Source: an uncultured Candidatus Saccharibacteria bacterium
GTDB taxonomy: Bacteria > Patescibacteriota > Dojkabacteria > B142 > JAFGMG01
Reading direction: 5' to 3'
DNA length: 63,916 nt
NCBI GenBank assembly: GCA_964444125.1
Contig: CAYUFB010000003.1
Location: forward strand, 1-63,916
The notes under the pieces were generated by a model that was not told the origin of the DNA, ran no database searches, and saw only the letters and a list, made by a program, of their open reading frames with translations. Shown one piece after another: positions 19,759 through 51,345 of this stretch; the first letter of the stretch is position 1, and each line of letters starts with the position of its first letter. A program made the translations under genes and the position numbers.

Positions 19759-20811
19759 CTACCTCTCACCGAGTATGAATATTTCTGACTTTGGTTTGAT
19801 GCCAAGCTTTTTTTCTGCTTCTTTTGTGATTAAATCCATCAAAGCCTCTACATCACTGGCTTTCGCACTTGAGATGTTCTCTATGAAGGCAGCATGTTTA
19901 TTTGAGATTTGCGCTCCTCCTATAGTTTTTCCTTTCAAATTTAGTACTCTATCTATAATATACCCCCAACTTGATGATTCTAGATTTAGCTTAAGTCTTT
20001 CTTCTTCGGAAATATTTTGCCAAACACATCCAGCCGATTTCTGAGGTTGTGCTTTTTTCCTTTTGGTCCATTCTTGATATACATATTTGGCTTTTTCTTT
20101 ATCTCCTTTATGAAGGGTGAATATTCCTTTAAGTATTATTTCTTTTTTATTATGAAATCTTGAATAATCGTAGGCAAAATCGCATTCTCTATTTGAAAAA
20201 GGGACTTCTTCTAAACTATCAAGATCGAGTGCAATGACTTTGTCAACATACTCTGATAGGTAATGAGTGCCTCCATGAATATTGTTATAAATTGCGCCTC
20301 CAATGGTACCTGGAATCCCTCCGAACCATTGAAGGCCGGTTATACCATTGAAGATTAATTTATTTATAGTAGCAGGTAATGATGCGCCAGATTCGATATG
20401 CACAGATATAACCGGCCTGTCACTCTCGTCATAATCAAGATCTTCAAATGAGTAATATTTACTTTCTTCAACTTGATCAAGTCTTGACGCAATCGGTTCG
20501 TTAAGTGATTCTTTTATTGCGGTTTCGCCTTCTTTGATTTGAATATTTGATGCAAGGTTTTTGATTACTAAGCCTCTTATTCCTTTATCTCTAATTAAAA
20601 CATTGCTACCCCATCCAAGCATCGTAAAAGGTATCTCGTATTGTTTTGATAGCTTTATAAGAGCTACAAGCTTGTCTGTAGAATCTACAGTTGCCAAAAT
20701 GTCTGCCGGCCCTCCAATTTTGAAGGTTGTATAGGGGGCAAGCGGCTCATTGAGCTTGTATTCAATTTCGAGTTTTCTTATAGATTCTAAGAATTCTTTT
20801 GAAATGTTCAT
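19759..20811 (-). CDS. murB: UDP-N-acetylenolpyruvoylglucosamine reductase
   Basis: TTFKIGGPA, GWGSNVL, GIPGTIGGAI.NN, QP..SAGCVW.N, ISNKHAAFI. Confidence 0.95.
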   Translation of the reverse strand: MNISKEFLESIRKLEIEYKLNEPLAPYTTFKIGGPADILATVDSTDKLVALIKLSKQYEIPFTMLGWGSNVLIRDKGIRGLVIKNLASNIQIKEGETAIKESLNEPIASRLDQVEESKYYSFEDLDYDESDRPVISVHIESGASLPATINKLIFNGITGLQWFGGIPGTIGGAIYNNIHGGTHYLSEYVDKVIALDLDSLEEVPFSNRECDFAYDYSRFHNKKEIILKGIFTLHKGDKEKAKYVYQEWTKRKKAQPQKSAGCVWQNISEEERLKLNLESSSWGYIIDRVLNLKGKTIGGAQISNKHAAFIENISSAKASDVEALMDLITKEAEKKLGIKPKSEIFILGER

Positions 20812-20816
20812 GGTGT

Positions 20817-20982
20817 CAGTATACAGTATTCAGCATTCAGCGTACAGCGTACAGTATTCCCCGCCAGAGGCGGGACCGCCTTTGGCGGAAGTATCCAGTA
20901 TCCAGTGTTCAGCATACAGTCTAGAGTGTGCAATAACCTTTGCATGGGAGGATAAACTTAACTCACAACTCAATGCTCTGGC
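20817..20982. repeat. Heptamer tandem-array element, copy 1, with a 30-bp GC-rich double-hairpin insert
   Basis: CAG(T/C)(A/G)T(A/T) x6, CCCGCC-AGA-GGCGGG-A-CCGCC-TTT-GGCGG insert, 6 more heptamers, short CTCA... inverse array. Confidence 0.85.
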
Positions 20983-20999
20983 CAAAGGTGGGCAAGCGC

Positions 21000-22907
21000 T
21001 CAGGCTAATACCGCCTTGATACGCCTGACGCCTGCGGATGAACTTTGTTCTTTGATGATTTTAAATTTCCCTGATTTGGCAAGTTCTTTTGTGTTTGTGA
21101 CATGCGGTCCTCCACAAAACTCTTTACTGAAGATTTCTCCATCTGGTTTTTGGACAAAATATACTGATACAATTTCGCCATATTTAGCTCCAAACTCCAT
21201 CTCTGCTCCAAGGCTTTCTGCCTCCTTAATTGGTAGTTCTTTTCTTTGTACTTCCCAGCCTTCATCGATAGCAAGATTAACTAATTCTTCAATTTTTTGT
21301 ATTTGCTCCTCTGATAATTTTTCTGCATATTCAAAATCAATTCTCAGCCTTTCTTTGGTTATATTGCTTCCTCTTTGATGAATATTGGGGCTGACAATTT
21401 TTTGTAATGCTGCAAGTAGCAAATGATGTGCAGTATGAAGCCTTGTTGTCTCTTCTGAATGATCTGCAAGTCCACCTGTGAACTTCTGCTCTGCCCCTTG
21501 CCTGCTTTGATCTTGATGAAGTTCTTTTTCTCTATTAAATTGACTAATAATCATATTTATCTCCTCTTGTGCCAAATCAGCGTCGTCATTTTTTTGATCT
21601 TCAATTTCTTCTATTATCATTTCAAGTGGAAATCCATAGGTCTCAAATAAATTGAAAGCTATCTTGCCGTCAATTGGTTGTCCTTTGCCTGTGATTTTCT
21701 GAAATTCTTTTAGGCCACGCTCTAACGTTCGTCTGAATTTAATTTCTTCTTTTTCTAATTCGTTAAGTATTAAACTTTCGTTTTCTTTTATATGAGGATA
21801 AGAATCTTCATATTGAGCAATCAATATCCCGGCTAATTCTCTTGCAAAATTATCATTTATTTCTAAAAATTTAGCTTGTCTGATCATACGTCTGATAATT
21901 CTTCTTAAGATATAGCCCTGCTCTTTATTTGAAGGCACAACTCCATCTGCTATGATAAATACGCTTGCTCTTATATGATCTGCTATTGCTCTAAAATGTT
22001 TGTTTTGAATTTCTCTTGCCTTCAAGTCATCAATATCTTCATCCTTCCAAACTTTGCCTGATAACTCTTCGATTTTTTTGATTGCACTTTGAAATAGGTC
22101 TGTGTCATAGTTATCCTTAACATTTTGGACAGCTGCGACGATTCTCTCAAATCCTCCACCAAAATCAATATTTTTTGTAGCCATCTCTTCCCATTCAAGA
22201 TTACTATTTAATTTGTATTGAAGAAAAACGCTATTGCCTAATTCAACAAACCTTCCGCTATCATCTGTGATTGAGTGATTCCCGGAGAATTCTGGATTTG
22301 ATACTGCCTGCATATCAAAAAAAAGTTCACTTGAAGGACCACCAAGTTCTCCAACTGCTTCGCCTCTTTGCCACCAGTTGCCTTGCTCTTTGCTTAGACC
22401 AAAGATTCTAAAGTTGCCTTTGGTGATGTCTTCGGGGTTTTCGGTATAATCTGCTTTCAAACCGTATTCTTCAAATAGCTTTTGCCATATGTCTATTGAC
22501 TCTTGGTCTTTTGGAACACTTTTGTTGCCCTTGAAGACAGTGACATAAATTCTATTGATATCAAGCCCAAAATGATTCACGTATAAATCAAGAAAATTTG
22601 GGAGCTGCTCTTCTTTGAAATAATCATTTAGTGACCAATTCCCTATCATTTCAAATAATGTATGATGTGTAGTATCTCCGACCTCTTCTAAATCTTCAGT
22701 TCTAACACATCTTTGGATGTTTGCAAGTTTGTTGCCAAGTGGGTGTTTTTGGCCCATTAGGTAATTAACTAGTGGAAACATGCCTGAGTTTACAAATAAT
22801 AATGATGGATCATTTTGAGGAACTAAAGAAACTCCAGGGATGATAGCGTGTTGTTTGTCTTTGTAGAAATTTATAAAAGCTTCTCTTATCTGTTTCGATG
22901 TTTTCAT
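21000..22907 (-). CDS. alaS: Alanine--tRNA ligase, short form without C-Ala domain
   Basis: DPSLLFVNSGM, HHTLFEMIGN, IDFGGGFER, IADHIRA, GYILRRIIRR, HTAHH and CGGPH editing motifs. Confidence 0.97.
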   Translation of the reverse strand: MKTSKQIREAFINFYKDKQHAIIPGVSLVPQNDPSLLFVNSGMFPLVNYLMGQKHPLGNKLANIQRCVRTEDLEEVGDTTHHTLFEMIGNWSLNDYFKEEQLPNFLDLYVNHFGLDINRIYVTVFKGNKSVPKDQESIDIWQKLFEEYGLKADYTENPEDITKGNFRIFGLSKEQGNWWQRGEAVGELGGPSSELFFDMQAVSNPEFSGNHSITDDSGRFVELGNSVFLQYKLNSNLEWEEMATKNIDFGGGFERIVAAVQNVKDNYDTDLFQSAIKKIEELSGKVWKDEDIDDLKAREIQNKHFRAIADHIRASVFIIADGVVPSNKEQGYILRRIIRRMIRQAKFLEINDNFARELAGILIAQYEDSYPHIKENESLILNELEKEEIKFRRTLERGLKEFQKITGKGQPIDGKIAFNLFETYGFPLEMIIEEIEDQKNDDADLAQEEINMIISQFNREKELHQDQSRQGAEQKFTGGLADHSEETTRLHTAHHLLLAALQKIVSPNIHQRGSNITKERLRIDFEYAEKLSEEQIQKIEELVNLAIDEGWEVQRKELPIKEAESLGAEMEFGAKYGEIVSVYFVQKPDGEIFSKEFCGGPHVTNTKELAKSGKFKIIKEQSSSAGVRRIKAVLA

Positions 22908-34964: not shown

Positions 34965-34965
34965 A

Positions 34966-36159: not shown

Positions 36160-36171
36160 ATTTATCTTTCA

Positions 36172-37848
36172 TCATTTCGAAGGTTTCTTGGGACCAAATG
36201 GTTGAGTGAATTTACCTACAACAGCAGATGCTCCACCAAATCCACCTGCCAAACCAGTTGGCAATCCCATAAATGGAGCACCACCAACAAGAGCTCTTGT
36301 AGTTCTCTGGCCTGGGGTCAATCTATCTGCATACGCCGGCAATACATTAAGCGCTTGATCAAGTGCATCGGGTATGACTGGAGTCGTCATGAATAACCCA
36401 AAAGCCAAAATCATTTGTACAACACTAATTTGACTTGTTTCTGTGCTATCGAGCACCGCACTGGAATATCCTAATAATGGCGGTAAAAATTTCAATCCAT
36501 TCATAAATTCAGTATGGTGGGTGATGACTATCATAAGCAAAAATACTGCATATACTGCTACAAATGAAAGTGATGCTGATAAAAGAGTCTTGAAATATCC
36601 AAATATAGCTTTGGCACCTTGTCCGGGGATTGCTACTGTAAGCATAATAAATGGTGATATTATGGGATAAAGAACCAATACAAGGTACTTGGTCAAGAAT
36701 TTCAAAAACAGCTTGACTGAGGTAGACAACGCGGCAATTGCAAACATAAGCTGGATAAACACACCGGTAAATCCATTGTCTAACATACCAGTCAATACTT
36801 TTGTGACTACTCCTCCTAAGACATTGGTCTGAGGTATGACAGATTTTGTATCAGCGTTGATTATATCTACATTTGATGTGATAAATATCTCCCATGCACT
36901 CATGGCAGGATCGTCTATTTGAAGATGGTTTCTAGCAGGGTCTTCTTCAGTGCCAAATGTACCCCCAAATTCTTTGACATTTTTAATTTCAAAGCCAAAC
37001 TTATCAAGTGTCGTTGGTGCCCATACGTCTTTGTACCCAGGTGACCAGGAATTTTGGACGAGAACTTGTTGGACCAGATTTGATCCAACTGTGATCATAT
37101 CTATGGCAAGTCCGGATAGCGGATAGCTCAAAGTGATCATAATCAATGCTACAATGATATTTGGGATAGAATTGGCTATTGTAACTTGAGTTTGACCACC
37201 AAGGTTGCTTCTAAATGCTACCATGAAAGCAATTATGATTATGATCAAAATCAAGGCGAGATAAGCAATATTTCTAGTAATTGTCCAAAAAGCCTGAATT
37301 GGCTTAAGGATATTGTATCCAAGTCCAGGATAGTATATCCACGATGCTTCTCCTTCTGTCTGGGCATGAGCTACATGTCCTGTAGTGATTTTTTCCCATT
37401 CTTGTTGTGCGTATACTATGCCACTTGCAGGTGGATTGTGATACATCTGCTGATTGAATGACATGACAGTATCAAGTGCCCCTGGTTGATTGATGTATAA
37501 ATACTGGCCACTTGCTGATGTCAGAGGCTCCCCAGTTTCGCTATCTCTAATCAATAATGGTTGTGGAATTATTTCGTTTTTTAATCCAGAAAGTAAAGCA
37601 CTAATCATATTGCCATCGACGCTTTTAGTAAGCTCTTGTGTGTTTTTATCATAATATACGGATCCATCTCCGGATATATATGTTTTTGCCGCACTATCCG
37701 TACTTTCGTTATTAATAAGATATATATTCCCATCTACATCTTGGATTCGAGTTTTGGCTGCTTGTGCGGGGCTTGTAAATAATGATGTGAATACCAAAAG
37801 TGTAAGTAGTGAAACTAATAATATTTTGGTTTTTGAAAATTTGGGCAT
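36172..37848 (-). CDS. VirB6/TrbL-like polytopic membrane protein (CPR secretion-locus type)
   Basis: Signal peptide, then W...RNIAY..L+L+++++AFM+.FR....Q..VT+.N.+P.I++AL++IT.SY.+.GL.ID and further TM helices, a pattern I associate with CPR VirB6-like proteins (recalled, not searched). Confidence 0.55.
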   Translation of the reverse strand: MPKFSKTKILLVSLLTLLVFTSLFTSPAQAAKTRIQDVDGNIYLINNESTDSAAKTYISGDGSVYYDKNTQELTKSVDGNMISALLSGLKNEIIPQPLLIRDSETGEPLTSASGQYLYINQPGALDTVMSFNQQMYHNPPASGIVYAQQEWEKITTGHVAHAQTEGEASWIYYPGLGYNILKPIQAFWTITRNIAYLALILIIIIIAFMVAFRSNLGGQTQVTIANSIPNIIVALIMITLSYPLSGLAIDMITVGSNLVQQVLVQNSWSPGYKDVWAPTTLDKFGFEIKNVKEFGGTFGTEEDPARNHLQIDDPAMSAWEIFITSNVDIINADTKSVIPQTNVLGGVVTKVLTGMLDNGFTGVFIQLMFAIAALSTSVKLFLKFLTKYLVLVLYPIISPFIMLTVAIPGQGAKAIFGYFKTLLSASLSFVAVYAVFLLMIVITHHTEFMNGLKFLPPLLGYSSAVLDSTETSQISVVQMILAFGLFMTTPVIPDALDQALNVLPAYADRLTPGQRTTRALVGGAPFMGLPTGLAGGFGGASAVVGKFTQPFGPKKPSK

Positions 37849-37931
37849 AATCTAGACAATTTTGATAATCTTCAGAGTCAGTATAGAAAGTTTAGAAAAA
37901 GATAGCAAGCAAGTAAGAAAGAAAATTTTGC

Positions 37932-38525
37932 TTAAAGACTTGATAAATTGACTGGGGGTGGGTTGATAGGTTTATCGTTATTGTTGTAGTCAAGAACTTG
38001 TGGCGGATTTTGACTTGTCGCCGTTTCAATCGTTGCTGATTGAGTTTGAGATTCACTGGGCGAAACTGCTGGTTGCTGGGGTTGGGTTTGCACGGACGTA
38101 TTGTCAGTTTTTTGTTTATTCTTTAGATCTTCAAGAACTTCTTTGTTAATTGATAAATCTGCCTGAACGTATTGTAATACGTCTAAAGCATCCTCTTCGT
38201 TTAGTTTATTTAGTGCCTGAGAAATAATTTTTTGATCATAGATATCTAATGCATCTTTTAATTTTTGTTCAAAACTTTTGCGATCTATTTCAGTGATGTT
38301 TTTTTGAATAATTTCGTAGGCAGTAGTAACATCTGTTAACTCTTCTATTTCGGTCATGACTGTAGATTTCTTTTCTTTAGGTATTGCACCATTTCTAAAT
38401 TGCTCTAAAAAAAACTCGTTAATTATTTCTAAACCACCTTCTAAATAATTTTCATAGTATTCCCTAAGCTCAGGCTCGCTTGAAGGTTTAAATAATTTAT
38501 TGATTATGCCAATATTTAAATTCAT
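37932..38525 (-). CDS. Small acidic helical hypothetical protein with Q/P/T-rich tail
   Basis: 197-aa ORF, E/D-rich. Confidence 0.8.
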   Translation of the reverse strand: MNLNIGIINKLFKPSSEPELREYYENYLEGGLEIINEFFLEQFRNGAIPKEKKSTVMTEIEELTDVTTAYEIIQKNITEIDRKSFEQKLKDALDIYDQKIISQALNKLNEEDALDVLQYVQADLSINKEVLEDLKNKQKTDNTSVQTQPQQPAVSPSESQTQSATIETATSQNPPQVLDYNNNDKPINPPPVNLSSL

Positions 38526-38543
38526 TTTATTTTATTGAAATAT

Positions 38544-41500
38544 TTAAGAACTAAAGCCATACATATTTCTAGTTTGAGTAGAGATGCTATATCCTCTTTG
38601 TTTCATATTTTCTATGAGTGCATTCTCTATTTGACCAAGTATACTAATGTTCCGTTCTATCATGCCCATAAAACTTCCATAGTTTAGATTTCTTTCTCCT
38701 CTTCTTATCCCAAAAGATTCAAAAAGAGCTTCGGTCATTGGATCTTTGTCTGCTGGAAGTTCTCCCGTTTGATTATATATATATGCATCATTAAAGAATG
38801 TTAGGATTTTGTCTTTGTTCGTAACTTTTCTTGACAATTCTTTTAGGGACTTTTCTCTACTTCTAATATCTTTATTAAGCGATCTGATGTATTCGTTATT
38901 CAATTTGCGGAATAATAGTAATCCGGATACCCCAAAAATGGCGCCAAGTCTTATACTTCCGATACCAAGAGGTATACCTACGATACCAAGAGACGTACCT
39001 AGTCCAGAACCAATCAGTGCTGAAGTGAAGCCAATCTTTCCTATTAATTTAAGCTTGTTTCCCCACTTCTTGAGCCTTGTTTTTAATAGTTCAAGTCTCA
39101 ATGTGAATCGATCTCTTTCTTGGTCTTCAATTAATTCTTTTAGATCTTCTTTTTGTTGTTGTATTTTCAATGTTTCTAGTAGAGTTTCTCTTGAAGCATG
39201 TCCAAAAAGATCTTTCCTCTCTGCAGATTCTTTGTATTCTTCTGGATAATTTGTTCTTAAGTAATCGTTGATTTCACTATCCTTAAATCCTAGCTCTGCC
39301 AATTTATCTTTAATTTCAAGTAATTCAATGTACCTTGTTGCTGGACTTCCTTCTGTATTGATTTTGCTAATAACCTCTTGAGCAAGCTTGCCCATAAATT
39401 CGACCCTAGGACTTACTGTAGTGTTTTTGGTACTTTCAATATTTGCTAACTGATTAAATAACTCAACAAATTGATTTCGATCAACTGTATCAGTGTTCGG
39501 GGAGTATCCCAATGCTTCGAGTGCCTTTTCTGCTTCTTTCCTTGCTTCGTCTAATTCTAATCTTGTCACTCCTGGGGCACCAAACGATCGATCAGCTTTT
39601 ATAATAGCCTGGTTTATAGTTCTGACCATATCTTCCCTTCTTCTTGAGTTTAATTCTCTTTGTATTTCATTCATTGTAAGTTCACTATTGCCGATTAAGG
39701 CCCACTGTCCACTTTCTGTAAGAGCTGCGTCAATATGTTTCTGGATATCAGCATCTTCAAGTCCTAATTTCCTTGCTTCTCTTATAGCCTTCAATGCTGT
39801 TTCTTTGGCTTTGTCGATATCTTGTGGTGTGGCTATGGCAAGTGCTTGATCCACTGCATTGACCAACATTCTGATTTTTTCTTCTGCATCAGGAAATTCG
39901 GTATCTATCATCTCTCGATATTTACCAATTAGTTCATTTCTTAGTTGTGCCCTTCTTGTTGGGTTCATTTCTGCAAGATCTATATTCATAGATTGTACAT
40001 CTCGTCTGATGAGGCTTTGAGTTTTTTGGTTGAAACTAGTCGGTGTTTCCGTTATTGATAATATTCTTTTTGCATCTTCAAGTTCTTTACGTTGTGCATC
40101 GGTACGCCTTGCTTCACTAATCCTTTCAATTTCCAAAATTTTCCTCTTTGCATCATTAATCGCAGCAGAATCTACTCTTTTTTTCATCAAAGCTTTGGCA
40201 TTATCTTGTTTTTCTTGTCCAAGTTTTTCTAATAGTGTTTCCCATTCTTCTAGATCAATCTCTTCGGATTTCTGTAGTTCTGCTGGTGTAGGTCCATCAT
40301 CATCAAGACTAGGGGCTGGTACATTCTGGCCGCGCTGTCGATCATCAATATTCTTTATTAGTTGGAGTTCATGCAATGCGTTTATGATATCCTCGTCTTC
40401 AAGTTCTGTAAGCATATTTATGAACGTTTGTTGTCTATTTTTGTCCACAAGTGTTGTAAAAAGTGTATTGATATGATCTGTAAGGCTATTAGGGTCCTCA
40501 ATTAGAGTAATAATAGTTTCATAATATGCGTTGTAAACAAGAGTGCCTGCAGTGGCAGGATATGCATCTCTTAGTTTTTTGGCTACTGAACCTATATTTT
40601 CTTTTTTATCTTTTAATTGATTTATTAATATTTGATCTGCTTTGTATCTTGTTGCATGGTTGAAGTCACCAGAACTATTTGCGTTAATAATAAAAGTTGT
40701 GGCAGAATCAAATTTGTCATCAGCGAATAATTCTTCAATATTTCTTAAGGCATTATTGTTAATGATATCTCCATTTTCTTCTAAATAATATCCTTCTAAT
40801 TCAAGTACGATTTGCGCAGAAAATTTTTCGATATCTGTCATATCTTCCGGTAGTCGTTCTAATAATCGCCCATCCTTTTGCCATCTCTTTTTGTGAGCTT
40901 CTGCAGTAATTGCAAAATCTGATATTTCAATATCTGGCGCAACTCGTTTTTTTAGTTCGGTTAGTTTGTTATACTCTGAACTAATGTCGGCAAGTTTTGC
41001 CTCTGTAAATGACGGGATTCCAAATATGTGACTATGTTGTGTTGCTAAATAATTTAAAATTGTGATCTCTGCTTGTGTCGGAGAACTTAAAGCATTTAAT
41101 GTTGCTATTCTGTGTTCATTGCGCCTGCCATCTGTACTCAGGCCGATTTGTATACATGAAAATAATATTCTGTTTTGTAAATGGTCTGATAATCCTGTAA
41201 GAATTGCATCTTTGTCTTTTCTGTTTTTAATTTGTTTTATTACTTCAACTAAAAGAGTAGGCATAGACTCCAACTTATCTTTGTCTGTGGAATGAATTGA
41301 ATCATTTAGAATAATTGCGAGATTCTCTGCTATTTTTTCCGATGAGTCAGCATTATTGAATATTTCTTGAAAATTAATTTCCTGAGGCGCAGAATTTTCT
41401 CCTGGAGTCGCTGTTCCTGCCTCAACTGGTGCCCCACCTGGAGCTGCATCAGGTCCTGGAATAAGAGCTTCGTCTGTCCCTTCAGATTCTGCGTCAGCAG

Positions 41501-41804
41501 CCTCACCAGAAGCTTCCTCAGTTGCTGGAATAGAACCATCGGATACTACAGATGTCACACCTTGATGTTCATCTGGAGCAGGCGCTTCAGCTGGTGCCCC
41601 ACCTGGTGCGGCTGCTGTTAAATCGGGAATCTCTGCCGGTTTAGGAACTATAGTTCTTTTAGCTTTTTGTGCAGATCTAGAAAGAAGTTCGCCAGCTTTC
41701 TCTTCTGTCATTGGTTGGCCAAGAAACTCTGGCTCTGCTTCTGACATTTCTGGCCGTAGTCCTTTTTCTCCCTCGCTATGATCTGGTAGTTTTGGTGTGC
41801 TCAT
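38544..41804 (-). CDS. Large coiled-coil protein (1086 aa) with acidic Pro/Ala-rich N-terminus and C-terminal Gly-rich hydrophobic hairpin
   Basis: APGGAP.EA twice (16-bp DNA repeat at 41426-41441 and 41591-41606); IGKIGFTSALIGSGLG...VSGLLLF; ATGA overlap with the upstream gene. Confidence 0.85.
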   Translation of the reverse strand: MSTPKLPDHSEGEKGLRPEMSEAEPEFLGQPMTEEKAGELLSRSAQKAKRTIVPKPAEIPDLTAAAPGGAPAEAPAPDEHQGVTSVVSDGSIPATEEASGEAADAESEGTDEALIPGPDAAPGGAPVEAGTATPGENSAPQEINFQEIFNNADSSEKIAENLAIILNDSIHSTDKDKLESMPTLLVEVIKQIKNRKDKDAILTGLSDHLQNRILFSCIQIGLSTDGRRNEHRIATLNALSSPTQAEITILNYLATQHSHIFGIPSFTEAKLADISSEYNKLTELKKRVAPDIEISDFAITAEAHKKRWQKDGRLLERLPEDMTDIEKFSAQIVLELEGYYLEENGDIINNNALRNIEELFADDKFDSATTFIINANSSGDFNHATRYKADQILINQLKDKKENIGSVAKKLRDAYPATAGTLVYNAYYETIITLIEDPNSLTDHINTLFTTLVDKNRQQTFINMLTELEDEDIINALHELQLIKNIDDRQRGQNVPAPSLDDDGPTPAELQKSEEIDLEEWETLLEKLGQEKQDNAKALMKKRVDSAAINDAKRKILEIERISEARRTDAQRKELEDAKRILSITETPTSFNQKTQSLIRRDVQSMNIDLAEMNPTRRAQLRNELIGKYREMIDTEFPDAEEKIRMLVNAVDQALAIATPQDIDKAKETALKAIREARKLGLEDADIQKHIDAALTESGQWALIGNSELTMNEIQRELNSRRREDMVRTINQAIIKADRSFGAPGVTRLELDEARKEAEKALEALGYSPNTDTVDRNQFVELFNQLANIESTKNTTVSPRVEFMGKLAQEVISKINTEGSPATRYIELLEIKDKLAELGFKDSEINDYLRTNYPEEYKESAERKDLFGHASRETLLETLKIQQQKEDLKELIEDQERDRFTLRLELLKTRLKKWGNKLKLIGKIGFTSALIGSGLGTSLGIVGIPLGIGSIRLGAIFGVSGLLLFRKLNNEYIRSLNKDIRSREKSLKELSRKVTNKDKILTFFNDAYIYNQTGELPADKDPMTEALFESFGIRRGERNLNYGSFMGMIERNISILGQIENALIENMKQRGYSISTQTRNMYGFSS

Positions 41805-42067
41805 TTCTTGGCTAAATTTTTATTTAAATAATCAATTAATTCTCCATTTTCGGCTAATTCGTCGAACAATAAAACATTCTCCAAAATCTTGCTGTCTGGC
41901 ATTTTGTCTTTTCTAAGGTTTTTCACCATTTCACGCAAAAAACTATTTGGAATCCTAGTACCAGTTTCCATCATTTTTCTTTTTCTATCCTTGTCGGCAA
42001 CGACTTGTTCAGTAGATCCGTCAGCGATATTTTGTAGTATCTGTTGTGCGTTTAGTGACATAAACAA
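41801..42067 (-). CDS. Small hypothetical protein, paralog of 42118-42375
   Basis: Aligns end to end with its neighbour (LQNI..G.T...V...+...KM.E.G.++PN......MV..LR....P...I...+L.FD.LAE..EL++YL). Confidence 0.85.
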   Translation of the reverse strand: MFMSLNAQQILQNIADGSTEQVVADKDRKRKMMETGTRIPNSFLREMVKNLRKDKMPDSKILENVLLFDELAENGELIDYLNKNLAKK

Positions 42068-42117
42068 TAAATTATTTATTATTCATTATGAATACAATTT
42101 ATAAAAAAAGCAAAAAA

Positions 42118-42375
42118 TTATTGCACTTTTTGTTTTTGTTTTGCTAAATACTCCACCAATTCATCTTTTTCGGCAAGTTGGTCGAAAAATAATATCCTGT
42201 CTACAATTTCATTTTCTGGTACGCCTCTGGCTCTAAGCCTTCCTACCATATTTTGCATCACAGCGTTTGGCACTTTTTTGCCATCTTCAACCATTTTGTA
42301 TTGTTTCTCTTTTGGATCCACAATATCGTCTGTGTTGCCGGCTATTATGTTTTGTAGTGTATTGGTTGGTGTCAT
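42118..42375 (-). CDS. Small hypothetical protein (85 aa), paralog of 41801-42067
   Basis: Start placed at MTPTNT; the track's 18-aa extension just translates the heptamer array. Confidence 0.85.
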   Translation of the reverse strand: MTPTNTLQNIIAGNTDDIVDPKEKQYKMVEDGKKVPNAVMQNMVGRLRARGVPENEIVDRILFFDQLAEKDELVEYLAKQKQKVQ

Positions 42376-42381
42376 TTTGAT

Positions 42382-42578
42382 CAGTATACAGTATTCAGTA
42401 TTCAGCTTACAGTATAGAGCATTAAGCATTCAGCATAAAGCATAAAGCATACAGTATTCAGCATACAGTATTCAGTATCTAGTTTTGAGTCTTGAGTAAT
42501 AGCAAGAAAAATTGCTGATATATAATTCAAAGCTCAAGACTCATAACTCATAGCTCATGACTCAATACTCAACACTCA
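42382..42578. repeat. Heptamer tandem-array element, copy 2
   Basis: 17 in-phase NAG(T/C)AT(A/T)-type heptamers (42382-42500), AGCAA-GAAAAA-TTGCT hairpin, ~7.5 inverse CTCA(A/T)NA heptamers (42526-42578). Confidence 0.92.
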
Positions 42579-43013
42579 CTGTTCAACGCTCTCATCCAGT
42601 TCTTCGTATGCTTGGCGAATTTCTTCATTTTGTTCATCCATTACTTTGAGCAATTCTGCTTTTTGTTCATCGTTAAGACTATCTCTAACCTTCTCTATCA
42701 AATCCATTTCAAGATCTCTCATCTCATCTTCAAATCTCTCCCAGAACTCAGTTAAATCAAACTGTACGTTTTTGTCTAACCATCTTTTGTAATCATCAAA
42801 TTTCTCCTTGGTTAGATTATCTGCATTTTCTAAATAATCTCTAATTTGCTCAAGTTGATTATCATCTTCAATTCTGTCGTTTAGATAAAGAACAAAATTT
42901 ATATTGAATTTGTGTTCTATAAGTCTAGCCAATTCTTCTAGAATATGGACGATTACTTCTTCTTTCTCTCCTGCAATTTCCAGTATTTTTTTTATTAGAG
43001 CAAAATTGAACAT
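42576..43013 (-). CDS. Small acidic helical hypothetical protein
   Basis: 145-aa ORF, very E/D-rich. Confidence 0.82.
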   Translation of the reverse strand: MFNFALIKKILEIAGEKEEVIVHILEELARLIEHKFNINFVLYLNDRIEDDNQLEQIRDYLENADNLTKEKFDDYKRWLDKNVQFDLTEFWERFEDEMRDLEMDLIEKVRDSLNDEQKAELLKVMDEQNEEIRQAYEELDESVEQ

Positions 43014-43026
43014 TATTTATATTAAT

Positions 43027-44370
43027 TTAATAATAGCTTGTAGGTTTTTGTTTTTTTATCCGTTCAGCTTTCATTTTGTTCCTAATGCCTTTGACTCTGT
43101 CGTCGACATATCCAAGAGCTTTTTCGTATTGTTGGGCTTCCTTTGTTTTGTTTTCCAACCTTGCAGCTTTTGCCTGATTGGATATCAAGAATTTCTCCTG
43201 TTCTTTGGTATCGTAGACTGCAAGAAGACCTTTTTTGTGCATAAGATCCTGGATACGTCTTGTAATTTTGTGCATACCATATAGAGCACCAAGAATACCA
43301 ACTCCAGGAATTACTGTCTTGTCGAGTTTGCCTGGTGATGGAAAAGTACCGAAGTCGGGTCTTCCTATATATTGAGAATTGGTATTATTTTCATTTTCAT
43401 TTAAAATAGGAGTAGGGAATTGTCCTTTATAAAAAACTGAACCTTCGCCAAAAATACCCGCAAAAGGAGCTCCTACAACTTTGGTCGCACCAATGGCCAA
43501 TTTGTCAGGATTGACCCCAAGTCCTGCCATCTCCATAAGTCTGCCTGTATACCACATAGTCTTTTGAAATAAGCCACCTTCTTTGAAATTCGTTGTATGA
43601 TAATCAAAAAATCCTGTTTCAATTCCTTTGCCCCATCCTACAATTCTTTGTCCAATATTGAGTAGTGCGTTTTTACCTTTTTCTAATATTGGTCCCCCAA
43701 AAGTTTTAAGGGTCTCAAATGCTTCTTTGGGGTTTGTACCTGCCAAAACACTTCCTCCGAAATATACTAATGCTAGAGGACCTAAGATTTTGATTGTGTT
43801 TTTGCCCAGTCTTTTTATATCTTCTAGAACTTTTCTTCTTGCGCCACTTTGAATCTCAATCGCTCTTTGATATTGTACATCTGATACCTTGAATTTGTCT
43901 TTGATACTTTCAATTACTTCTTTTGCAGTCCTTGTTTCAGGTACGGGTGCTTCTTCAGGTTCCTCTGGTCTTCTACCACGTATTACTACGTTGTGATTAA
44001 CTGGTATATCAATGTCAGCAAGATCTCTTGGATCAACTTGTACACGTTCTGTTGGTGCAGGTCGTCTGACAATAAGACCATCTGGTTCGGCTGCTGCTGG
44101 TTGACGATATTCTTGTGCTGCAGGTTCGGTAGGTCTTGTAACTTGTGTAGCTGGCTCTGTTGGAGTGGTTGGTGCAGTTCGTGCTGGGCTTGATAGTATT
44201 GGAGGAGAATAAGAACTATCCGCAGTCCTACTTTGTGGATTGGCAGTATTAGCTGTTGGAAGTTGTGTCGGTTGAGTTGGCCTTGTAGGAGCTGTTATAT
44301 GTATGGGAACCTCTGCAATAGGTCTTGCATCCATACCTCCAGTTGTCTCTCCAGGATTACCTGACATCAC
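43027..44370 (-). CDS. Hypothetical protein with P/T-rich disordered N-terminus and hydrophobic segments
   Basis: 447 aa; APTRPTQPTQ/PTEPA repeats; ILGPLALVYFGGSVLAG and IPGVGILGALYG. Confidence 0.82.
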   Translation of the reverse strand: MMSGNPGETTGGMDARPIAEVPIHITAPTRPTQPTQLPTANTANPQSRTADSSYSPPILSSPARTAPTTPTEPATQVTRPTEPAAQEYRQPAAAEPDGLIVRRPAPTERVQVDPRDLADIDIPVNHNVVIRGRRPEEPEEAPVPETRTAKEVIESIKDKFKVSDVQYQRAIEIQSGARRKVLEDIKRLGKNTIKILGPLALVYFGGSVLAGTNPKEAFETLKTFGGPILEKGKNALLNIGQRIVGWGKGIETGFFDYHTTNFKEGGLFQKTMWYTGRLMEMAGLGVNPDKLAIGATKVVGAPFAGIFGEGSVFYKGQFPTPILNENENNTNSQYIGRPDFGTFPSPGKLDKTVIPGVGILGALYGMHKITRRIQDLMHKKGLLAVYDTKEQEKFLISNQAKAARLENKTKEAQQYEKALGYVDDRVKGIRNKMKAERIKKQKPTSYY

Positions 44371-44425
44371 AAAAGTATATAATATTTTTTCATTCTAGGC
44401 GAAAATAGGTGGCTTCGCAAGGGGA

Positions 44426-44893
44426 TTATTCAAGTACCTGTCTGACCTTGTCTTCTAAATCACGTTTTTTGGCGATTCTTATTATTTCTAGTTTTTCTGG
44501 AATTTCTTTCAATTTCTTCTGGAAATATCCGAGAAGTTGCATGATGCCATCTTCAGGGCCTGTCTCAAGAAATTCAAAGAAAATGTCTTTTTCGTATTCT
44601 TTGACAATTTTGTTAATTTCATCTTCTAAATCTGGGTAAGTTTTCATGTATATTTTGATTTGATCATGAAGTGCATAAAAACCTCTTTTGTTATCTTCCT
44701 TGTTTTTCGCTTCCAATAATGTGTTTAATTCCTTTACGACTTCCGGGTCTTCTTTGACCATAAATTCCAAGGTTTTCGAGTAAGCATATTTTGAAATAAC
44801 TTCGTAATGAGTATAGATAAACGATTCCTTCTCATGTTCTAGAAGCCCAAGACTATCTGCAATTATGTTTAATGATTTTTCATCTAAAATCAT
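44426..44893 (-). CDS. Small acidic helical hypothetical protein
   Basis: 155-aa ORF. Confidence 0.82.
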   Translation of the reverse strand: MILDEKSLNIIADSLGLLEHEKESFIYTHYEVISKYAYSKTLEFMVKEDPEVVKELNTLLEAKNKEDNKRGFYALHDQIKIYMKTYPDLEDEINKIVKEYEKDIFFEFLETGPEDGIMQLLGYFQKKLKEIPEKLEIIRIAKKRDLEDKVRQVLE

Positions 44894-44919
44894 GAAATTA
44901 TTATTAAATTAATTAAATA

Positions 44920-47900
44920 TTATGTTCCATATTTTTTCAATTGTTCTTTCACACCTTCTCTAATTTTGTCCAAAGTTGATATAACTGTATCATGTTCTGG
45001 AAACCAGTCATCAGGTGCGTCCGTTTGAGACAGATCTTCAAGCCAATAATTGATTTCTTCTCCTGTACTATACATTCTCTCAAGGTCGTATTCTGTGGTC
45101 ACACCTCTTTTCATTGCTGCTTCGAATATACTATCTAATGATTTGATTTCTTTGAGCCTGCCTAGAGCCTTCTTCCTTCTTTCTCCCCATTTCTTTTGCT
45201 CGTGTACAAGCCATGGTTTGAATTTGTATCTTCCATAGAGACTCAGAAGAATAGCTGTAAAAGCCATTGGACTACCTGTGTACATGAGAGTCAGAGTTGA
45301 AGCAAGAAGTGCCAAGTTAGTGGCTCTTTCTGAAAATTTTGCCAATCCTTTGAAATGTGCTGTAGCTGTGTATGCAAAACGTTCAAATTGGGCAACTTTT
45401 TTCACTGCTTTTTGCCAGGCATAGAGATAAGTTTGGGCTGTGTTGAACCTTCTTTCTGATGCTCTATAACCACCTTTGATACTATCCATTATCTTATCCA
45501 CTTCCATCTTGGATTTTGGCAGAATAGCTTCTTGCTCTTGTCTGTATGGGTTACCCCAGCTATCGTCAGGCGAAAAGTTAATAAAACTCTCGAAAAACGC
45601 ATCTTCGGGAGCTTTCGTTTTGCCGTCACGCGAAACTGCTCTTAAGACGTGTTCAAATATCCTGCTTGTTTCTTGTCTATTAAATACTTTTGTTTTGTCA
45701 AAAAACTTTTCATATTTTTCTAAATAGTCTGCAACTGTTGACATTTCTCTGCTTCCTTTAGCGCTATCGATAATTGCTTTTACATAGTCTCGAAAATCAT
45801 CTGTTGCATTGCCACTTGCATCAAATACGTTTATTTTGGGTCCACCGGGAATTTGAACCTCTTGTTTGAATTTGATTATTGGCAAGTGTCTATCTATTCC
45901 TGTGATTGGATCTTTGATCTTCATAAATTCCATATCATACCTTCTATCTGGTGGAATACCTTCTTCTAAAGCCTTTCGCATCTGGGCAAAACGGTACTCG
46001 TCAAGAGCCCATTTGATACCATCGGTTCTAAGTCTGACGTTTTCTGAATCATACCCATCATCTTCGTTGGTACCAAACATAGAGACTGCGTCACGCATAC
46101 TGTCTTGAGATTTTAGACGAATAAATCTCAAGTGAGGATTTTCATAATCTCCAACCACTCTGCCCCACAATGCGTTTGTCGTTTCGTCTGATATATCTGC
46201 TTGTAATTTGCCATTAATAATAAGTGGATTTTTATCAACTCCTTTGACAAGCTCAACACCTCTTGGAATCAAATTGCCCCACTCGTCTCGTAAGTTTTCT
46301 CCTGGGGCTATTGAGACTTTTTTGGTTTGGCCTCTCTCCCTGATTTCAAGATGAATAGTTTTTCCGGTGTTGTTTTGAAGCCAGGCCGTACCATTATCGA
46401 TAAGTTGTTCTTCAGCATAATGTATCAAATTGACCATCTCAAAGAATGAATAATGTTTTTTTTCTTTGGCTGCTTCGTTGTGCTCATGACCAAGTGTCCT
46501 AAATGCCATCAAGCCATCACGTCTTCTGAGATAATCTCTGAAGTCCTCTCCAATTTGTCTTTCCCAATAGAACATTCCTTCTCTCATATAGTCTGGCAAA
46601 TCGCTTCTTCTAGCATGTTTTTTGAAAAATTTGGAAACTTCTTGTTGTCTTTTGCCAGGTCCACGTCTTAGAGAACCTAGCATCAAACTTCTAATCAATC
46701 CTTCATTTGGGCTATATCTCTTGCCATCATAGGCGTAGCTATATTTGGACAGATGTCCTGTCCCAAAGAGCTTATCTTTGGCTACATCTTCTAATATGCT
46801 TAATTCCGAGCTACCTATTCGTGTAGTTTCTTTAAGATCATTGTGGTCTATACCAAACTGATAAGTTTGCCCCTTAAATTCATATTTGACTCCGGATAAT
46901 TCATTTAAGTATCTAAGCATTTCTTGTTGATCTATCTGCCCGTCTGATGCTCCAATTTGGACAAACCATTGTGGCCCCATGGAATATAGTTTGTCGTAAA
47001 CGCCCATTGCAAGACTTGTTGGGAGGTTTTCTCGTTCTTCGGCTATATTGTGTGCGGCATTGTATCCTGGAAGATATTCTTTGAGTCTGTGTTCCATCTC
47101 AGGACTTACCCATGCCCAAAATTTTATAGGCTTAGCGCCAAGATCGGCTGATCCAAGATCTTTTTCGGCCCATCTTCTTAATTTTGGATTCATGCTATGT
47201 GCATATCTAGCTGCTATTGCTCTCTTTCTATTATATGAAGCAAGGCCTGGGATCGGGATATATGTTCTATCCATAATACCTCCTACAATTGGTAATCTAC
47301 CTACTGTCCGAAATCCTTGTATTGTACTTAGTGGCCTAAAACCCCACCCTTCATCTGCAAATTCAAGCCTGGTATTGTATGCGGCTTTGCCTGCTTCTCC
47401 ATACCATGTGATTTTGCCACCCATTTGCTGCGTGTCTGTGTATAGTTGCTTTTTATTTAATGGGTTTGTGCTATCGGTGACCCCGAATAAAGAATCCATC
47501 CCAGATGCTGCGTATTTGATATTCGTATTGTCTTTCAAAGCTTCTTCAATTAGGGGTGATTCTCTATCAGAAAATAATTCAGCATTTTGTATATCTCTAC
47601 TTTCGGTTGGCTTGAGATAAGGGTACATTTCTGCAAGTTGTCTCCTTATACTGGCAAGTTTCTCTTCTGGCAATAGACTTGGATCTTGTTGTTCTAGTAG
47701 TGTGCGCAAATTAAATGCTAATTGTGATCTTCTGATACTGTCTTCAAGTAGTTGCTCACGATCTTTCTTAGCAGGTTCACTGCCTTGGTCTTCTGTTTGT
47801 GCAATTTGTTTCGGCTTGAGTATACGCTCTAAATCTTTGATGAGGTAGTATAGTTCTCTCTCTGCGGGGGTAGGATTAGGATGTTTGAGGATGTACAAAT

Positions 47901-50016
47901 CATCAAGTTTTATCTCGCCTTTTTCTAGCACTTCTTCTGTGATTCTTGAAGATAACTCTCTATAGGCTCTATTAAGCCGGGTTCCTTCTGGGGTTATTTT
48001 TTCTGGATCTACATTTGCCAGTTTATAATCCTTATGAAATTCATCTAGTAGATAATCAGTTGTTTCGTGTTTTTGAAGTCTGGTCCCAACATCATGATTT
48101 AAAGTAGGATTATTTGTTAGTACAATAATATTTACTGATGGAGTGATATTTTTACCTCTTGCAACTGTATCGAAATTAGTTCCCTCTATTAGATTCTTGA
48201 AGTTTATCAGACCTGCATTCTCTATAGTAGCTCCCATTCCATTTGCTTTGATATCTTCAATACTATTTTCTTTCACTCCCAAGGCTAAAAGAAGTTGATT
48301 GTATTCTTCTTCACTTCCTGCTATGAGGTGGCTATTTACGACAAGAGATATACCTGTTGGAGAGATCTCAAGATCCACTATACGTTTATTAAATAGATCT
48401 TCAAGATTAAGATCATTATCCCGGAGGTTAAATAGACCTTTGATGTCATTGTTTAAGGCTTGAATTGTTTGTTTTCTTCTTTCTTCTTGCTTATCAATAT
48501 CTCTGTCTTCCGGGTACCCAACTAACTCCCATGCCATTTGATGTTGTGTTCGAATTTGTTTTGCAAGTTCGAGCATATCTTGTATCTCTTTTTTGTACTT
48601 TTTATTTTTCTCTGAATTCTCGGGGTCTAGGTTTGGTTCTGGAACAAAATCATACTCTCCATTTTCGGTAAAAGTGACATCACCAAGGTTGAATTCCTGG
48701 AGTCTTAGGTACAAATCTAGTTCATCGAAATCTTCACTATTTAAAAGCATTATCATAGTCATGAAATCTTCTCTAGCAGCTGTGATCCGCTCTTCTACCG
48801 GGCCAGTTCTTCTCCATTCTTCATAATTAACAAATTCATCAGCAAGTTCTGCCATTTCTCCCTGTTTCTCTAGATCAACCTTTTCTAGCGAAATCTCAAT
48901 TCTAGATAAGATCTTGGGGTCACTGATAAGCTCGAGTAGACGAATTTGGTTTAGACTTAATGGCTGAATATCCTCTGCTGTTATCTTAGTTGTGAGTAAT
49001 GAAGTAAGATTTCTTTCGGATATTAATAACCTCTGTAATTCTTCTAATCGTTCTTTTTCTGTTTTAAGTAATCCTGGTCTAATTGAATCTTTTTCAAGTA
49101 TTTTTGTAATTGTATTCGTCGTTATCACATCTAGACAAGATTGCTTTGACTCTCCTTCTCTCCCTGTTTCTTTTACCATAAAAGGACTCTCTGATAAACT
49201 TCGAAGCTGATCAATTAATAGAGTGTTTCTACGATTTTGAAGAGCAACTAGTTCATTATTTTCCTCTTTCGTCCTATCAGTTTTCTTCTCCAAAGCTCGG
49301 ATTCTTTTTTCAATTTTTTTAAGATCTCTATGGTTTGCTACTCGTTTGGACTTTTCTTGTCTGGCCCTCTCTTTCTTGTCTATTACTCCTTCAGGTTTTG
49401 AAGTTTCTTGTTTCTTTTCCCCCTTTGCGGATTTTTTATTGTCAGCTTCTACAGTTTGTTCTACTTCGTTGATGTCGATCCCTGCACCTTTCATAGCTTC
49501 TTTTGTTTGTGCAAGTACTCCTTTAAATAATTCTCTAAAGGTATTATCATCCATCCCTTGAGGAACTGCATCTGATTGATTACTTAATGCCTGTAAGGTA
49601 TTGTATGCTTGAAGGATCAATTCTCTTTTTGCCTTCTTATCTGATTCATTTTTTAATTCTGCAAAGTTTGTAGCGCGATTGATTTCTCTGAGGGCAAGTT
49701 CTAGTGGGGCGACATTTTCTGCAGGGATCTCTCCTGTGATCTTTTGTCTCTCAAGCATTAATCTTGCCATCTGGATAAATTCAGGGCGAGGTGGTCTTGA
49801 AGCTCGATCAGATGATTTTTCATTTTGTGATTCAGGGCCTCTTCTTAGTTGAGCACGTTCAAGTTCTCTTGCGATATTTTCTTCTGATTGTCTTTTGGCA
49901 ATCTCTGCTATATCACGTCTACGTTGGCTTTCTGCCTGTTTTTTCTTTTCGGGGCTAGTACCTTGTACTTGCCCTTGCCCTTGTCCCCCTAGTTCGTTTG
50001 ATTCAGCTGTAGACAT
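44920..50016 (-). CDS. Giant hypothetical protein (1698 aa), coiled coils and C-terminal hydrophobic hairpin
   Basis: Uninterrupted ORF; no signal peptide; ATNLALLASTLTLMYTGSPMAFTAILLSLYG near the C-terminus. Confidence 0.88.
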   Translation of the reverse strand: MSTAESNELGGQGQGQVQGTSPEKKKQAESQRRRDIAEIAKRQSEENIARELERAQLRRGPESQNEKSSDRASRPPRPEFIQMARLMLERQKITGEIPAENVAPLELALREINRATNFAELKNESDKKAKRELILQAYNTLQALSNQSDAVPQGMDDNTFRELFKGVLAQTKEAMKGAGIDINEVEQTVEADNKKSAKGEKKQETSKPEGVIDKKERARQEKSKRVANHRDLKKIEKRIRALEKKTDRTKEENNELVALQNRRNTLLIDQLRSLSESPFMVKETGREGESKQSCLDVITTNTITKILEKDSIRPGLLKTEKERLEELQRLLISERNLTSLLTTKITAEDIQPLSLNQIRLLELISDPKILSRIEISLEKVDLEKQGEMAELADEFVNYEEWRRTGPVEERITAAREDFMTMIMLLNSEDFDELDLYLRLQEFNLGDVTFTENGEYDFVPEPNLDPENSEKNKKYKKEIQDMLELAKQIRTQHQMAWELVGYPEDRDIDKQEERRKQTIQALNNDIKGLFNLRDNDLNLEDLFNKRIVDLEISPTGISLVVNSHLIAGSEEEYNQLLLALGVKENSIEDIKANGMGATIENAGLINFKNLIEGTNFDTVARGKNITPSVNIIVLTNNPTLNHDVGTRLQKHETTDYLLDEFHKDYKLANVDPEKITPEGTRLNRAYRELSSRITEEVLEKGEIKLDDLYILKHPNPTPAERELYYLIKDLERILKPKQIAQTEDQGSEPAKKDREQLLEDSIRRSQLAFNLRTLLEQQDPSLLPEEKLASIRRQLAEMYPYLKPTESRDIQNAELFSDRESPLIEEALKDNTNIKYAASGMDSLFGVTDSTNPLNKKQLYTDTQQMGGKITWYGEAGKAAYNTRLEFADEGWGFRPLSTIQGFRTVGRLPIVGGIMDRTYIPIPGLASYNRKRAIAARYAHSMNPKLRRWAEKDLGSADLGAKPIKFWAWVSPEMEHRLKEYLPGYNAAHNIAEERENLPTSLAMGVYDKLYSMGPQWFVQIGASDGQIDQQEMLRYLNELSGVKYEFKGQTYQFGIDHNDLKETTRIGSSELSILEDVAKDKLFGTGHLSKYSYAYDGKRYSPNEGLIRSLMLGSLRRGPGKRQQEVSKFFKKHARRSDLPDYMREGMFYWERQIGEDFRDYLRRRDGLMAFRTLGHEHNEAAKEKKHYSFFEMVNLIHYAEEQLIDNGTAWLQNNTGKTIHLEIRERGQTKKVSIAPGENLRDEWGNLIPRGVELVKGVDKNPLIINGKLQADISDETTNALWGRVVGDYENPHLRFIRLKSQDSMRDAVSMFGTNEDDGYDSENVRLRTDGIKWALDEYRFAQMRKALEEGIPPDRRYDMEFMKIKDPITGIDRHLPIIKFKQEVQIPGGPKINVFDASGNATDDFRDYVKAIIDSAKGSREMSTVADYLEKYEKFFDKTKVFNRQETSRIFEHVLRAVSRDGKTKAPEDAFFESFINFSPDDSWGNPYRQEQEAILPKSKMEVDKIMDSIKGGYRASERRFNTAQTYLYAWQKAVKKVAQFERFAYTATAHFKGLAKFSERATNLALLASTLTLMYTGSPMAFTAILLSLYGRYKFKPWLVHEQKKWGERRKKALGRLKEIKSLDSIFEAAMKRGVTTEYDLERMYSTGEEINYWLEDLSQTDAPDDWFPEHDTVISTLDKIREGVKEQLKKYGT

Positions 50017-50067
50017 GAATTAGAAATAATAAATTATTGTTATTATAGTGAATTTTCATCAATACTA

Positions 50068-51165: not shown

Positions 51166-51345
51166 AAGTATACAGTATGTAACGTACGGCGTACAGCATA
51201 CAGCATTCAGCGTTTAGTATTCAGCCTCCAGCAAACAGTATATAGTTTTGAGTCATGAGTAATAGTAAGCCAAAATTACTGGCTCAACACTCAATACTCA
51301 CTACTCAAAGCTAGATACTCAACACTCAATACTCATTACTCAACA
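51166..51345. repeat. Heptamer tandem-array element, copy 3
   Basis: 14 in-phase heptamers (51166-51263), AGTAA-GCCAAAA-TTACT hairpin, 9 inverse CTCA-type heptamers (51283-51345). Confidence 0.92.

Follow-up and report, generated by a model that had tools for sequence, protein, structure and literature searches.

Tandem arrays of heptanucleotides have been known in cyanobacteria since about 1990. Other short repeats of bacterial genomes, among them REP/BIME/REPIN, Correia (CREE/NEMIS), ERIC and MITEs, are co-transcribed, and some serve as RNase III substrates or stop exonucleases. The IVSs of 23S rRNA can carry an ORF, and ORF-less IVSs exist too. In Coxiella, the IVS has a 28-bp terminal-inverted-repeat stem, which RNase III cleaves, with an S23p (four-helix-bundle) ORF in its loop, and it has been termed a selfish element (PMC4990558). 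The corresponding family, PF05635, resembles Avd of diversity-generating retroelements, the partner of a nucleic-acid enzyme (PMC10053308).

Two groups of heptamer repeats have been described in some detail. One study placed TAACTGA repeats of Beggiatoaceae, Cyanobacteria and Bacteroidetes immediately upstream of start codons and proposed a post-transcriptional role for them (MacGregor, 2015; PMC4679880). In Xanthomonas, GGGAATC/GGGGAYT repeats include 70–75 convergent inverted pairs able to form stem-loops, and a search for a role came up empty (Rehm et al, 2015; PMC4692102). The same paper cites a 2007 report that heptameric repeats are over-represented among bacterial simple repeats.

Here, we describe a two-array heptamer element in a stretch of 63,916 nucleotides (hereafter the window) from a Candidatus Dojkabacteria genome. 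Its kind has been described before, as Xanthomonas GGGAATC pairs, cyanobacterial STRR and TAACTGA repeats; what is new is a member in a new phylum. Like the STRR/GGGAATC/TAACTGA class, the window copies consist of in-phase degenerate 7-nt units, intergenic and often abutting start or stop codons. That class occurs in Cyanobacteria, Bacteroidota and some Proteobacteria, whereas the host here is a CPR bacterium. The window units, CAGYATN and ACTCANN, differ from TAACTGA, GGGAATC and STRR1-3 and fall into no named sub-family. The element shares with 23S rRNA IVSs (Coxiella, Leptospira; PMC4990558) a terminal-inverted-repeat stem with a PF05635 ORF or nothing in the loop, and a sporadic distribution. 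Those IVSs lie inside rRNA helices, whereas the window element lies between protein genes and has no ORF; RNase III excision has been shown for IVSs, and their stems are not reported as heptamer arrays. Finally, the element resembles REP/BIME/REPIN, Correia, ERIC and MITEs in being short, non-coding, multicopy, genome-specific, palindromic and located at gene junctions, and differs from them in that its arms are 7-nt tandem arrays giving multi-register pairing.

Results

Three gene junctions are filled by opposed heptamer arrays

AlaRS homologues identify the host as Candidatus Dojkabacteria (CPR), with best relatives 59–65% identical. The gene content of the window is housekeeping (pheST, thrS, infC, clpP, mutL, murB, alaS, a class A PBP), leaders are AT-rich, and only three of 45 genes have a Shine-Dalgarno-like motif. 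No RNase III gene was seen in the window.

A preliminary description, made from the DNA letters without database searches, had reported three copies of a dispersed element with two inverted arrays around a short hairpin. Our inspection of the sequence agrees with it in position and layout: three gene junctions of the window are filled by related non-coding repeat copies, each with two opposed arrays of 7-base units, and all flanking genes lie on the minus strand. On the plus strand, every copy has a CAGYATN array followed, after a short central hairpin, by ACTCANN units in the opposed orientation. Read in the sense (minus) direction, the order is stop codon, (UGAGUNN)x7-9, short hairpin, (NAURCUG)x14-17 and start codon. 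The repeat is ~190–200 nt long, the sense-strand unit of the start-proximal array is ATACTGA, and this arm is about twice the length of its partner. The copies and their neighbors are as follows.

Copy 1, 20817-20982: between minus-strand genes alaS (upstream) and murB (downstream)
19759..20811, minus strand: murB, downstream of copy 1
20817..20923, minus strand: start-proximal arm, 6 + 5 units split by a 31-nt GC-rich insert
20859..20889, no strand assigned: nested insert, a 31-nt GC-rich twin hairpin, CCGCCAGAGGCGG + CCGCCTTTGGCGG
20929..20978, minus strand: central hairpin (TGCAA..TTGCA) and decayed stop-proximal arm
21000..22907, minus strand: alaS, upstream of copy 1, the short 635-aa CPR form
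Copy 2, 42382-42578: between minus-strand 145-aa ORF (upstream) and 85-aa ORF (downstream)
42118..42375, minus strand: 85-aa ORF, downstream of copy 2, with the same start in the independent L001 gene call
42382..42500, minus strand: start-adjacent arm, 17 in-phase units, CAGYATN on the plus strand (NATRCTG on the sense strand)
42501..42532, minus strand: centre of 32 nt with a 5-bp hairpin, AGCAA-GAAAAA-TTGCT, at 42502-42517
42533..42578, minus strand: stop-adjacent arm, ~6.6–7 units, CTCANNA on the plus strand (TGAGTNN on the sense strand)
42576..43013, minus strand: 145-aa ORF, upstream of copy 2
Copy 3, 51166-51345: between a minus-strand PduO-type cobalamin adenosyltransferase gene (upstream) and a 348-aa ORF (downstream)
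51166..51263, minus strand: start-proximal arm, 14 units, the inner 35 nt being 31/34 identical to copy 2
51264..51282, minus strand: central hairpin, GCCAGTAATTTTGGC on the sense strand
51283..51345, minus strand: stop-proximal arm, 9 units, CTCANNA on the plus strand

In copy 2, the TGA stop of the 145-aa ORF (42576-42578) is part of the first sense-strand unit, and the array stops 6 nt short of the downstream ATG at 42375; an independent gene call also gives a gap of 200 nt. Its start-proximal units follow CTNNATN on the sense strand (CTCAAGA, CTGAATA, CTGTATG etc.), and it contains the 15/16 inverted repeat noted earlier. The arm of copy 1 ends 5 nt from the murB ATG at 20811. Copy 3 begins 5 nt past the TAA stop (51349-51351) of the adenosyltransferase gene, and its other end lies 51 nt from the next ATG. 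The earlier statement that each copy runs from just after a stop codon to just before the next start is thus accurate for copies 1 and 2 and fails for copy 3. The window copies combine multiple in-phase head-to-tail 7-nt units, intergenic placement often touching start or stop codons, and the inverted pairing of arrays known from Xanthomonas.

The GC-rich twin hairpin of copy 1, with two matches against 0.05 expected and none elsewhere in the window, may be a second, nested small element. The decayed stop-proximal arm of this copy retains ~2.5 units (ACTCACA ACTCAAT GCTC; sense GAGTTGT/GAGTTAA), which resemble the GAGTTAA-type units of a Dojkabacteria relative, L125, at the same AlaRS-MurB junction. 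A sequence related to the twin hairpin, GGCCAAAGGTGGG, adjoins the alaS stop codon (20975-20987), and a similar hairpin, GTCGCCTTTGGCGAC, lies beside a heptamer array at L125:19075-19100. AlaRS itself (21000-22907) stops at the tRNA_SAD domain, a form common to all close relatives.

Several other features of the window are recorded here. The 85-aa and 145-aa ORFs flanking copy 2 had no family matches. They lie in the region 31491-51114, where twelve successive minus-strand ORFs, including proteins of 1698, 1160 and 1086 aa, gave no Pfam or PHROG matches apart from two weak ones: a Pesticin/lysozyme-like match at 37932-38525 and a below-cutoff YgaB match in the 348-aa ORF. We rejected a prophage reading of this gene block for its lack of PHROG matches. 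Between murB and mutL (18766-19758), ~1 kb has no ORF longer than 44 aa in a genome that is otherwise compact; the same place in another relative, L182, is a 1.3-kb gene-free gap with no sequence similarity to it.

The period-7 signal is confined to the three copies. The period-7 scan proposed in the preliminary description, run as a sliding scan over the 63.9-kb window, found 126 windows with self-similarity at ≥33/49 positions, all within copies 1–3. At the same threshold, periods 5, 6, 8 and 10 gave none and period 9 gave 17. Allowing ≤1 mismatch, CAGYATNCAGYAT has 23 matches against 1.08 expected, every one inside copies 1–3. ACTCANNACTCA has 20 matches in the window against 4.57 expected. 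Tandem Repeats Finder reports arrays of period 7/14/21 at the three copies, with 70–77% matches, i.e. degenerate units. Rfam covariance models matched nothing relevant, either at gathering thresholds or at permissive E-values. A CRISPR array, already dismissed in the preliminary description for want of spacers, is ruled out: CRISPR requires 24–48-nt repeats with unique spacers, and these 7-nt units are contiguous.

The copies belong to one dispersed repeat family

Copies 2 and 3 are colinear end to end, with 31/34 identity in the centre outside the arrays. A start-proximal terminus is common to copies 1 and 2, at 30/33 identity (...CTGAATACTGTATACTGA). At least seven further contigs from the same metagenome run, at 7–11x depth compared with 10.3x here, carry matching pieces, mostly termini. 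Because the copies are colinear, have a common terminus and recur on further contigs, we interpret them as a dispersed repeat family and not as three independent slippage tracts. With three copies in 64 kb and the further contigs, the family shows the many near-identical copies per genome that are typical of MITEs and REPINs. Judged by sequence, the three loci are paralogous copies of a non-coding dispersed repeat specific to this Dojkabacteria genome, and the dispersed, two-array inverted element first proposed is supported. Having non-array sequence in common, as paralogous whole elements do, sets them apart from the STRR/GGGAATC/TAACTGA repeats.

No target-site duplication is convincing at the ends of copies 1–3, no transposase occurs among the scanned ORFs of the 64-kb contig, and no RAYT or transposase partner of the element was identified on it. 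Other samples carry identical sequence without 7-nt indels, and we found no whole-element presence/absence polymorphism between close strains.

The alternative of neutral simple-sequence repeats would have these arrays arise by slippage in place in AT-rich spacers, immobile and functionless, with arms that look inverted only through near-palindromic units (AGTAYT / ARTACT, core AGTACT). The literature describes heptamer arrays with 7-nt-step indels, for which no regulatory role was found. We consider this explanation unlikely. It does not account for the conservation of non-array parts between copies (centre and terminus), and enrichment of period 7 only is not what it would be expected to give. 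The degeneracy of the arrays argues against recent slipping, and the organism encodes MutL.

Predicted stems are strong in two copies and generic in kind

Because the two arrays are near-complementary (6/7 positions; on the sense strand a G.G mismatch recurs periodically), each copy could form a long imperfect stem in many registers, in RNA or in either DNA strand. Sense-strand RNA is predicted to fold at -58.2 kcal/mol for copy 2 (z -4.3 vs shuffles) and -62.4 kcal/mol for copy 3 (z -5.1), whereas copy 1 is no better than shuffles (z -0.4). Copies 2 and 3 thus have inverted terminal repeats that can pair into a long stem, whereas this capacity is weak in copy 1.

Permuting units within the arms gave a mean of -51.1 +/- 3.5 kcal/mol for copy 2, with 9 of 300 permutations as stable as observed, and -59.2 +/- 4.0 for copy 3, with 40 of 200 as stable as observed. 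By this unit-permutation test, position-specific arm covariation in copies 2 and 3 is weak or absent. Since permuted units are nearly as stable, the stem is generic and multi-register, and its stability is no proof of selection for a particular stem. The long multi-register hairpin of the preliminary description is therefore correct as a fold, although its stability is almost wholly generic unit complementarity and not position-specific pairing. That stability depends on the units and not on their order is also what in-place slippage would produce.

In copies 2 and 3, sense RNA is 16–20 kcal/mol more stable than antisense because of G.U pairs. As these copies are paralogs, this counts as effectively one observation; copy 1 and most relatives, including L125 and a further one, L183, do not show it, and 116 mixed elements gave no clear bias (61 vs 52).

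Stable stem-loops placed after stop codons raise the idea that the elements terminate or attenuate transcription from one gene to the next. Across the wider set of arrays analyzed below, placement is enriched downstream of genes (61 convergent vs 27 divergent junctions), and in some relatives a canonical terminator lies within the loop of an element (L183:16206-16365). The stems in the window, however, are AT-rich and mismatched and have no U-tract after them, promoter and terminator consensus scans found nothing in copies 2 and 3, and the flanking genes are packed tightly on one strand in an operon-like manner. We regard this as very improbable.

Relatives carry the same architecture with different units

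We compared relatives through loci of 12.7–22 kb. Relatives have the same architecture with their own 7-base units, and most elements run from stop codon to ATG.

L183: three hairpin elements, (AAGTTNT/AGGTTNT)n...(NNNAACTT)n, running TAA to ATG; 220 bp of unrelated repeats between AlaRS and MurB
L125: heptamer arrays at three sites, with a different unit at each; a 141-bp heptamer hairpin of GAGTTAA type between AlaRS and MurB
L126: one heptamer element; a gene other than murB after alaS
L123: one AT-rich period-7 tract that is not an inverted pair; a gene other than murB after alaS
L181: no heptamer element in 22 kb; another gene inserted at the AlaRS-MurB junction
L182: no heptamer element in 22 kb; a plain 14-bp spacer at the AlaRS-MurB junction

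A comparison of occupied and empty sites, which the preliminary description had suggested, is thus available at the AlaRS-MurB junction: the window and L125 are occupied, and the empty 14-bp spacer is seen in one distant relative, L182. The AlaRS-MurB spacer of L183 (L183:11906-12125) consists of direct copies of GTTGTCC(C/T)TTTTCATCACG plus a palindrome, not heptamers. A Saccharibacteria MAG, L004, has one element, 5'(GAGTATT)n(AATACTG)n3', whose polarity matches that of the window copies. In copies 1 and 2, as in L183, L125 and L004, arrays come within 5–6 nt of an ATG. At a related Bacteroidota locus, L153, metatranscriptome contigs cover rplL and the downstream gene and not the array, which poor assembly of repeats may explain.

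Inverted heptamer pairs across bacteria show a strong bias in arm polarity

A scan for (CAGYATN)x4 in one genome per species gave at least 120 matches; among the matches listed are Bacteroidota, Chloroflexota, Calditrichota, Verrucomicrobiota, Planctomycetota, Desulfobacterota, Cyanobacteria, CPR and others. When metagenomes were scanned for the two-arm pattern, 54 loci were recovered. Many heptamer arrays are solitary or have a unit that drifts gradually along the array (e.g. L129), and ~50 are inverted pairs. The preliminary description had held that copies elsewhere without the inverted layout would point to simple slippage microsatellites, and this applies to half of the picture. Solitary or gradually drifting arrays and the long pure (GAGTACT)n tracts that also occur fit slippage in place, against which stand the recurrence of the inverted layout and its strong 5' G-rich polarity. 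Of 51 inverted pairs whose base composition is skewed, 42 have their G-rich arm on the 5' side (36 loci vs 6; p = 3e-6), and the polarity is the same from either strand. We know of no published mention of it.

Among 206 arrays with callable neighbors, 118 lie between co-directional, 61 between convergent and 27 between divergent genes. These data bear on two further explanations. In one, the start-proximal array is functional: its (A)UACUGA units would bind a putative post-transcriptional factor (S1, Csp, CsrA-like) or form a standby site, with the opposed array as an anti-sequence tuning access; the factor-binding or standby model is the one put forward for TAACTGA repeats. The closeness of array ends to start codons in the window and relatives is consistent with this, as are the scarcity of Shine-Dalgarno-like motifs and an arm about double its partner's length. 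The sense unit ATACTGA moreover differs from TAACTGA by the swap of two adjacent bases and lies in the same 'forward' orientation as reported for repeats directly before start codons (PMC4679880). We nevertheless judge it improbable: 51 nt separate copy 3 from its start codon, orientation across 52 elements in several phyla is at most weakly biased, with no clear preference (30 vs 18), the 61 arrays between convergent genes are not expected from it, no binding protein is known, and units vary between sites within the L125 genome.

In the other explanation, the elements act as DNA, and transcription is irrelevant: the arrays would be putative protein-binding sites, possibly for the four-helix-bundle protein, or cruciforms or slipped structures for recombination, inversion or cassette exchange. 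Polarity that is equal on both strands and arrays in all gene contexts would fit, as would membership of Avd, the partner of a nucleic-acid enzyme, in the four-helix-bundle family (PMC10053308). So would the inverted compound arrays 6 kb apart around several genes in a Lentisphaerae contig, L036, and dense arrays on virus-classified contigs. We think it distinctly unlikely, given that no recombinase is consistently nearby, that arrays are under-represented between divergent genes (27/206), and that sense RNA of copies 2 and 3 is much stabler than antisense via G.U pairs, which is unexpected for a purely DNA element.

The Lentisphaerae MAG has compound arrays of the form (GAATGCT)n(ATAATTC)n (L036:57-182, 6082-6249; L007:397-518), and the pair in L036 surrounds a DNA methyltransferase-like ORF and a response-regulator/sensor gene set. 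The virus-classified contigs with very dense heptamer arrays are L193, L194, L213, L214, L219 (IMGVR_UViG_3300028840_003139) and L212; one 40-kb contig has ~25 arrays. No four-helix-bundle relatives were detected in the array-carrying viral contigs.

Inverted heptamer arrays bracket four-helix-bundle genes elsewhere

The preliminary description mentioned 7-bp arrays flanking genes for four-helix-bundle (IVS) proteins and saw no such gene here, and we found both points to be true. In loci selected for their arrays, a profile search placed all six PF05635/TIGR02436 genes between arrays, Bacteroidota and Chloroflexota MAGs included. In L125, a four-helix-bundle gene is bracketed by GAATCAN/NTGATTC units. 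In a sample taken blind to arrays, by tblastn of one such protein against plasmids, inverted heptamers lie on both sides of 6–7 of 8 cyanobacterial genes. The unit of these cyanobacterial brackets varies by locus (GGGAACA, GGGAAAA, GGGTGTA, GGTGACA, GCAGAAG), and the cassettes are typically inserted between co-directional genes. On plasmid pANA02 of Anabaena sp. 90 (L191), one cassette with GGTGACA/TGTCACC arrays lies between cas6 and cas4. The position of these genes exactly between the arms is a further point against slippage in place.

Within the window, an iterative jackhmmer profile search of all ORFs ≥60 aa found no PF05635/TIGR02436 gene. The centres between the inverted arms are only 19–32 nt long and hold no ORF, and the arms are heptamer arrays like those around four-helix-bundle genes of the same lineage (L125). 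In the sample examined, gene-less inverted pairs outnumber gene-bearing ones ~6 to 1. On the evidence of these sequences, the window copies are the gene-less version of the inverted-pair form of intergenic heptanucleotide arrays.

Among the papers available to our search, none gave a link between heptamer arrays and the four-helix-bundle gene. Neither this bracketing nor the 5' G-rich polarity is mentioned in the available parts of the reports on GGGAATC (PMC4692102) and TAACTGA (PMC4679880) repeats. Avd belongs to the same four-helix-bundle superfamily as the gene bracketed elsewhere, and one locus, L059, has a weak DivGenRetAVD match far below the family cutoff. Unlike a diversity-generating retroelement, the window lacks a reverse transcriptase, a template/variable repeat pair and an Avd gene.

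Discussion

We tentatively favor, at not quite an even chance, the reading that the window elements are ORF-less, IVS-like hairpin cassettes in operon junctions, co-transcribed with their neighbors, processed as RNA, and mainly selfish or near-neutral. An element would insert in the very short spacer between two co-transcribed genes and be transcribed along with them. Its stem would then act like the terminal-inverted-repeat stem of an rRNA IVS, or like REP or Correia hairpins, as an RNase III substrate or exonuclease barrier, so that the two cistrons would no longer share one fate. Ahead of the start codon, the longer start-proximal arm would leave A/U-rich units single-stranded, in a host that appears to make no use of Shine-Dalgarno sites. 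The element is probably maintained for the most part as a selfish or near-neutral insertion. RNA-level processing or stabilization is the most likely consequence of such an element, and selfish persistence the most likely reason for its existence.

A bolder conjecture, possible but doubtful in our estimate, joins the heptamer hairpins and the gene for the four-helix-bundle (Avd-like, 'IVS protein') family into one pan-bacterial cassette system. Such a system would have a fixed polarity with the G-rich arm 5', insert in operon junctions and rRNA helices, be excised at the RNA level, and spread via gene-less MITE-like derivatives, of which the three window copies would be examples. Its arms would be made or recognized by a dedicated mechanism and not by slippage.

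The finding adds to the hosts of heptanucleotide arrays a CPR lineage whose genome is tiny and compact and in which junk DNA should carry a cost. Three regularities, namely paralogous whole elements, the bracketing of four-helix-bundle genes and 5' G-rich polarity, make the problem of these arrays more testable, and in various phyla it is usually the inverted-pair form that brackets four-helix-bundle genes. Should the RNA-processing reading be true, these elements would be a general means of segmenting operon transcripts in bacteria without Shine-Dalgarno sites.
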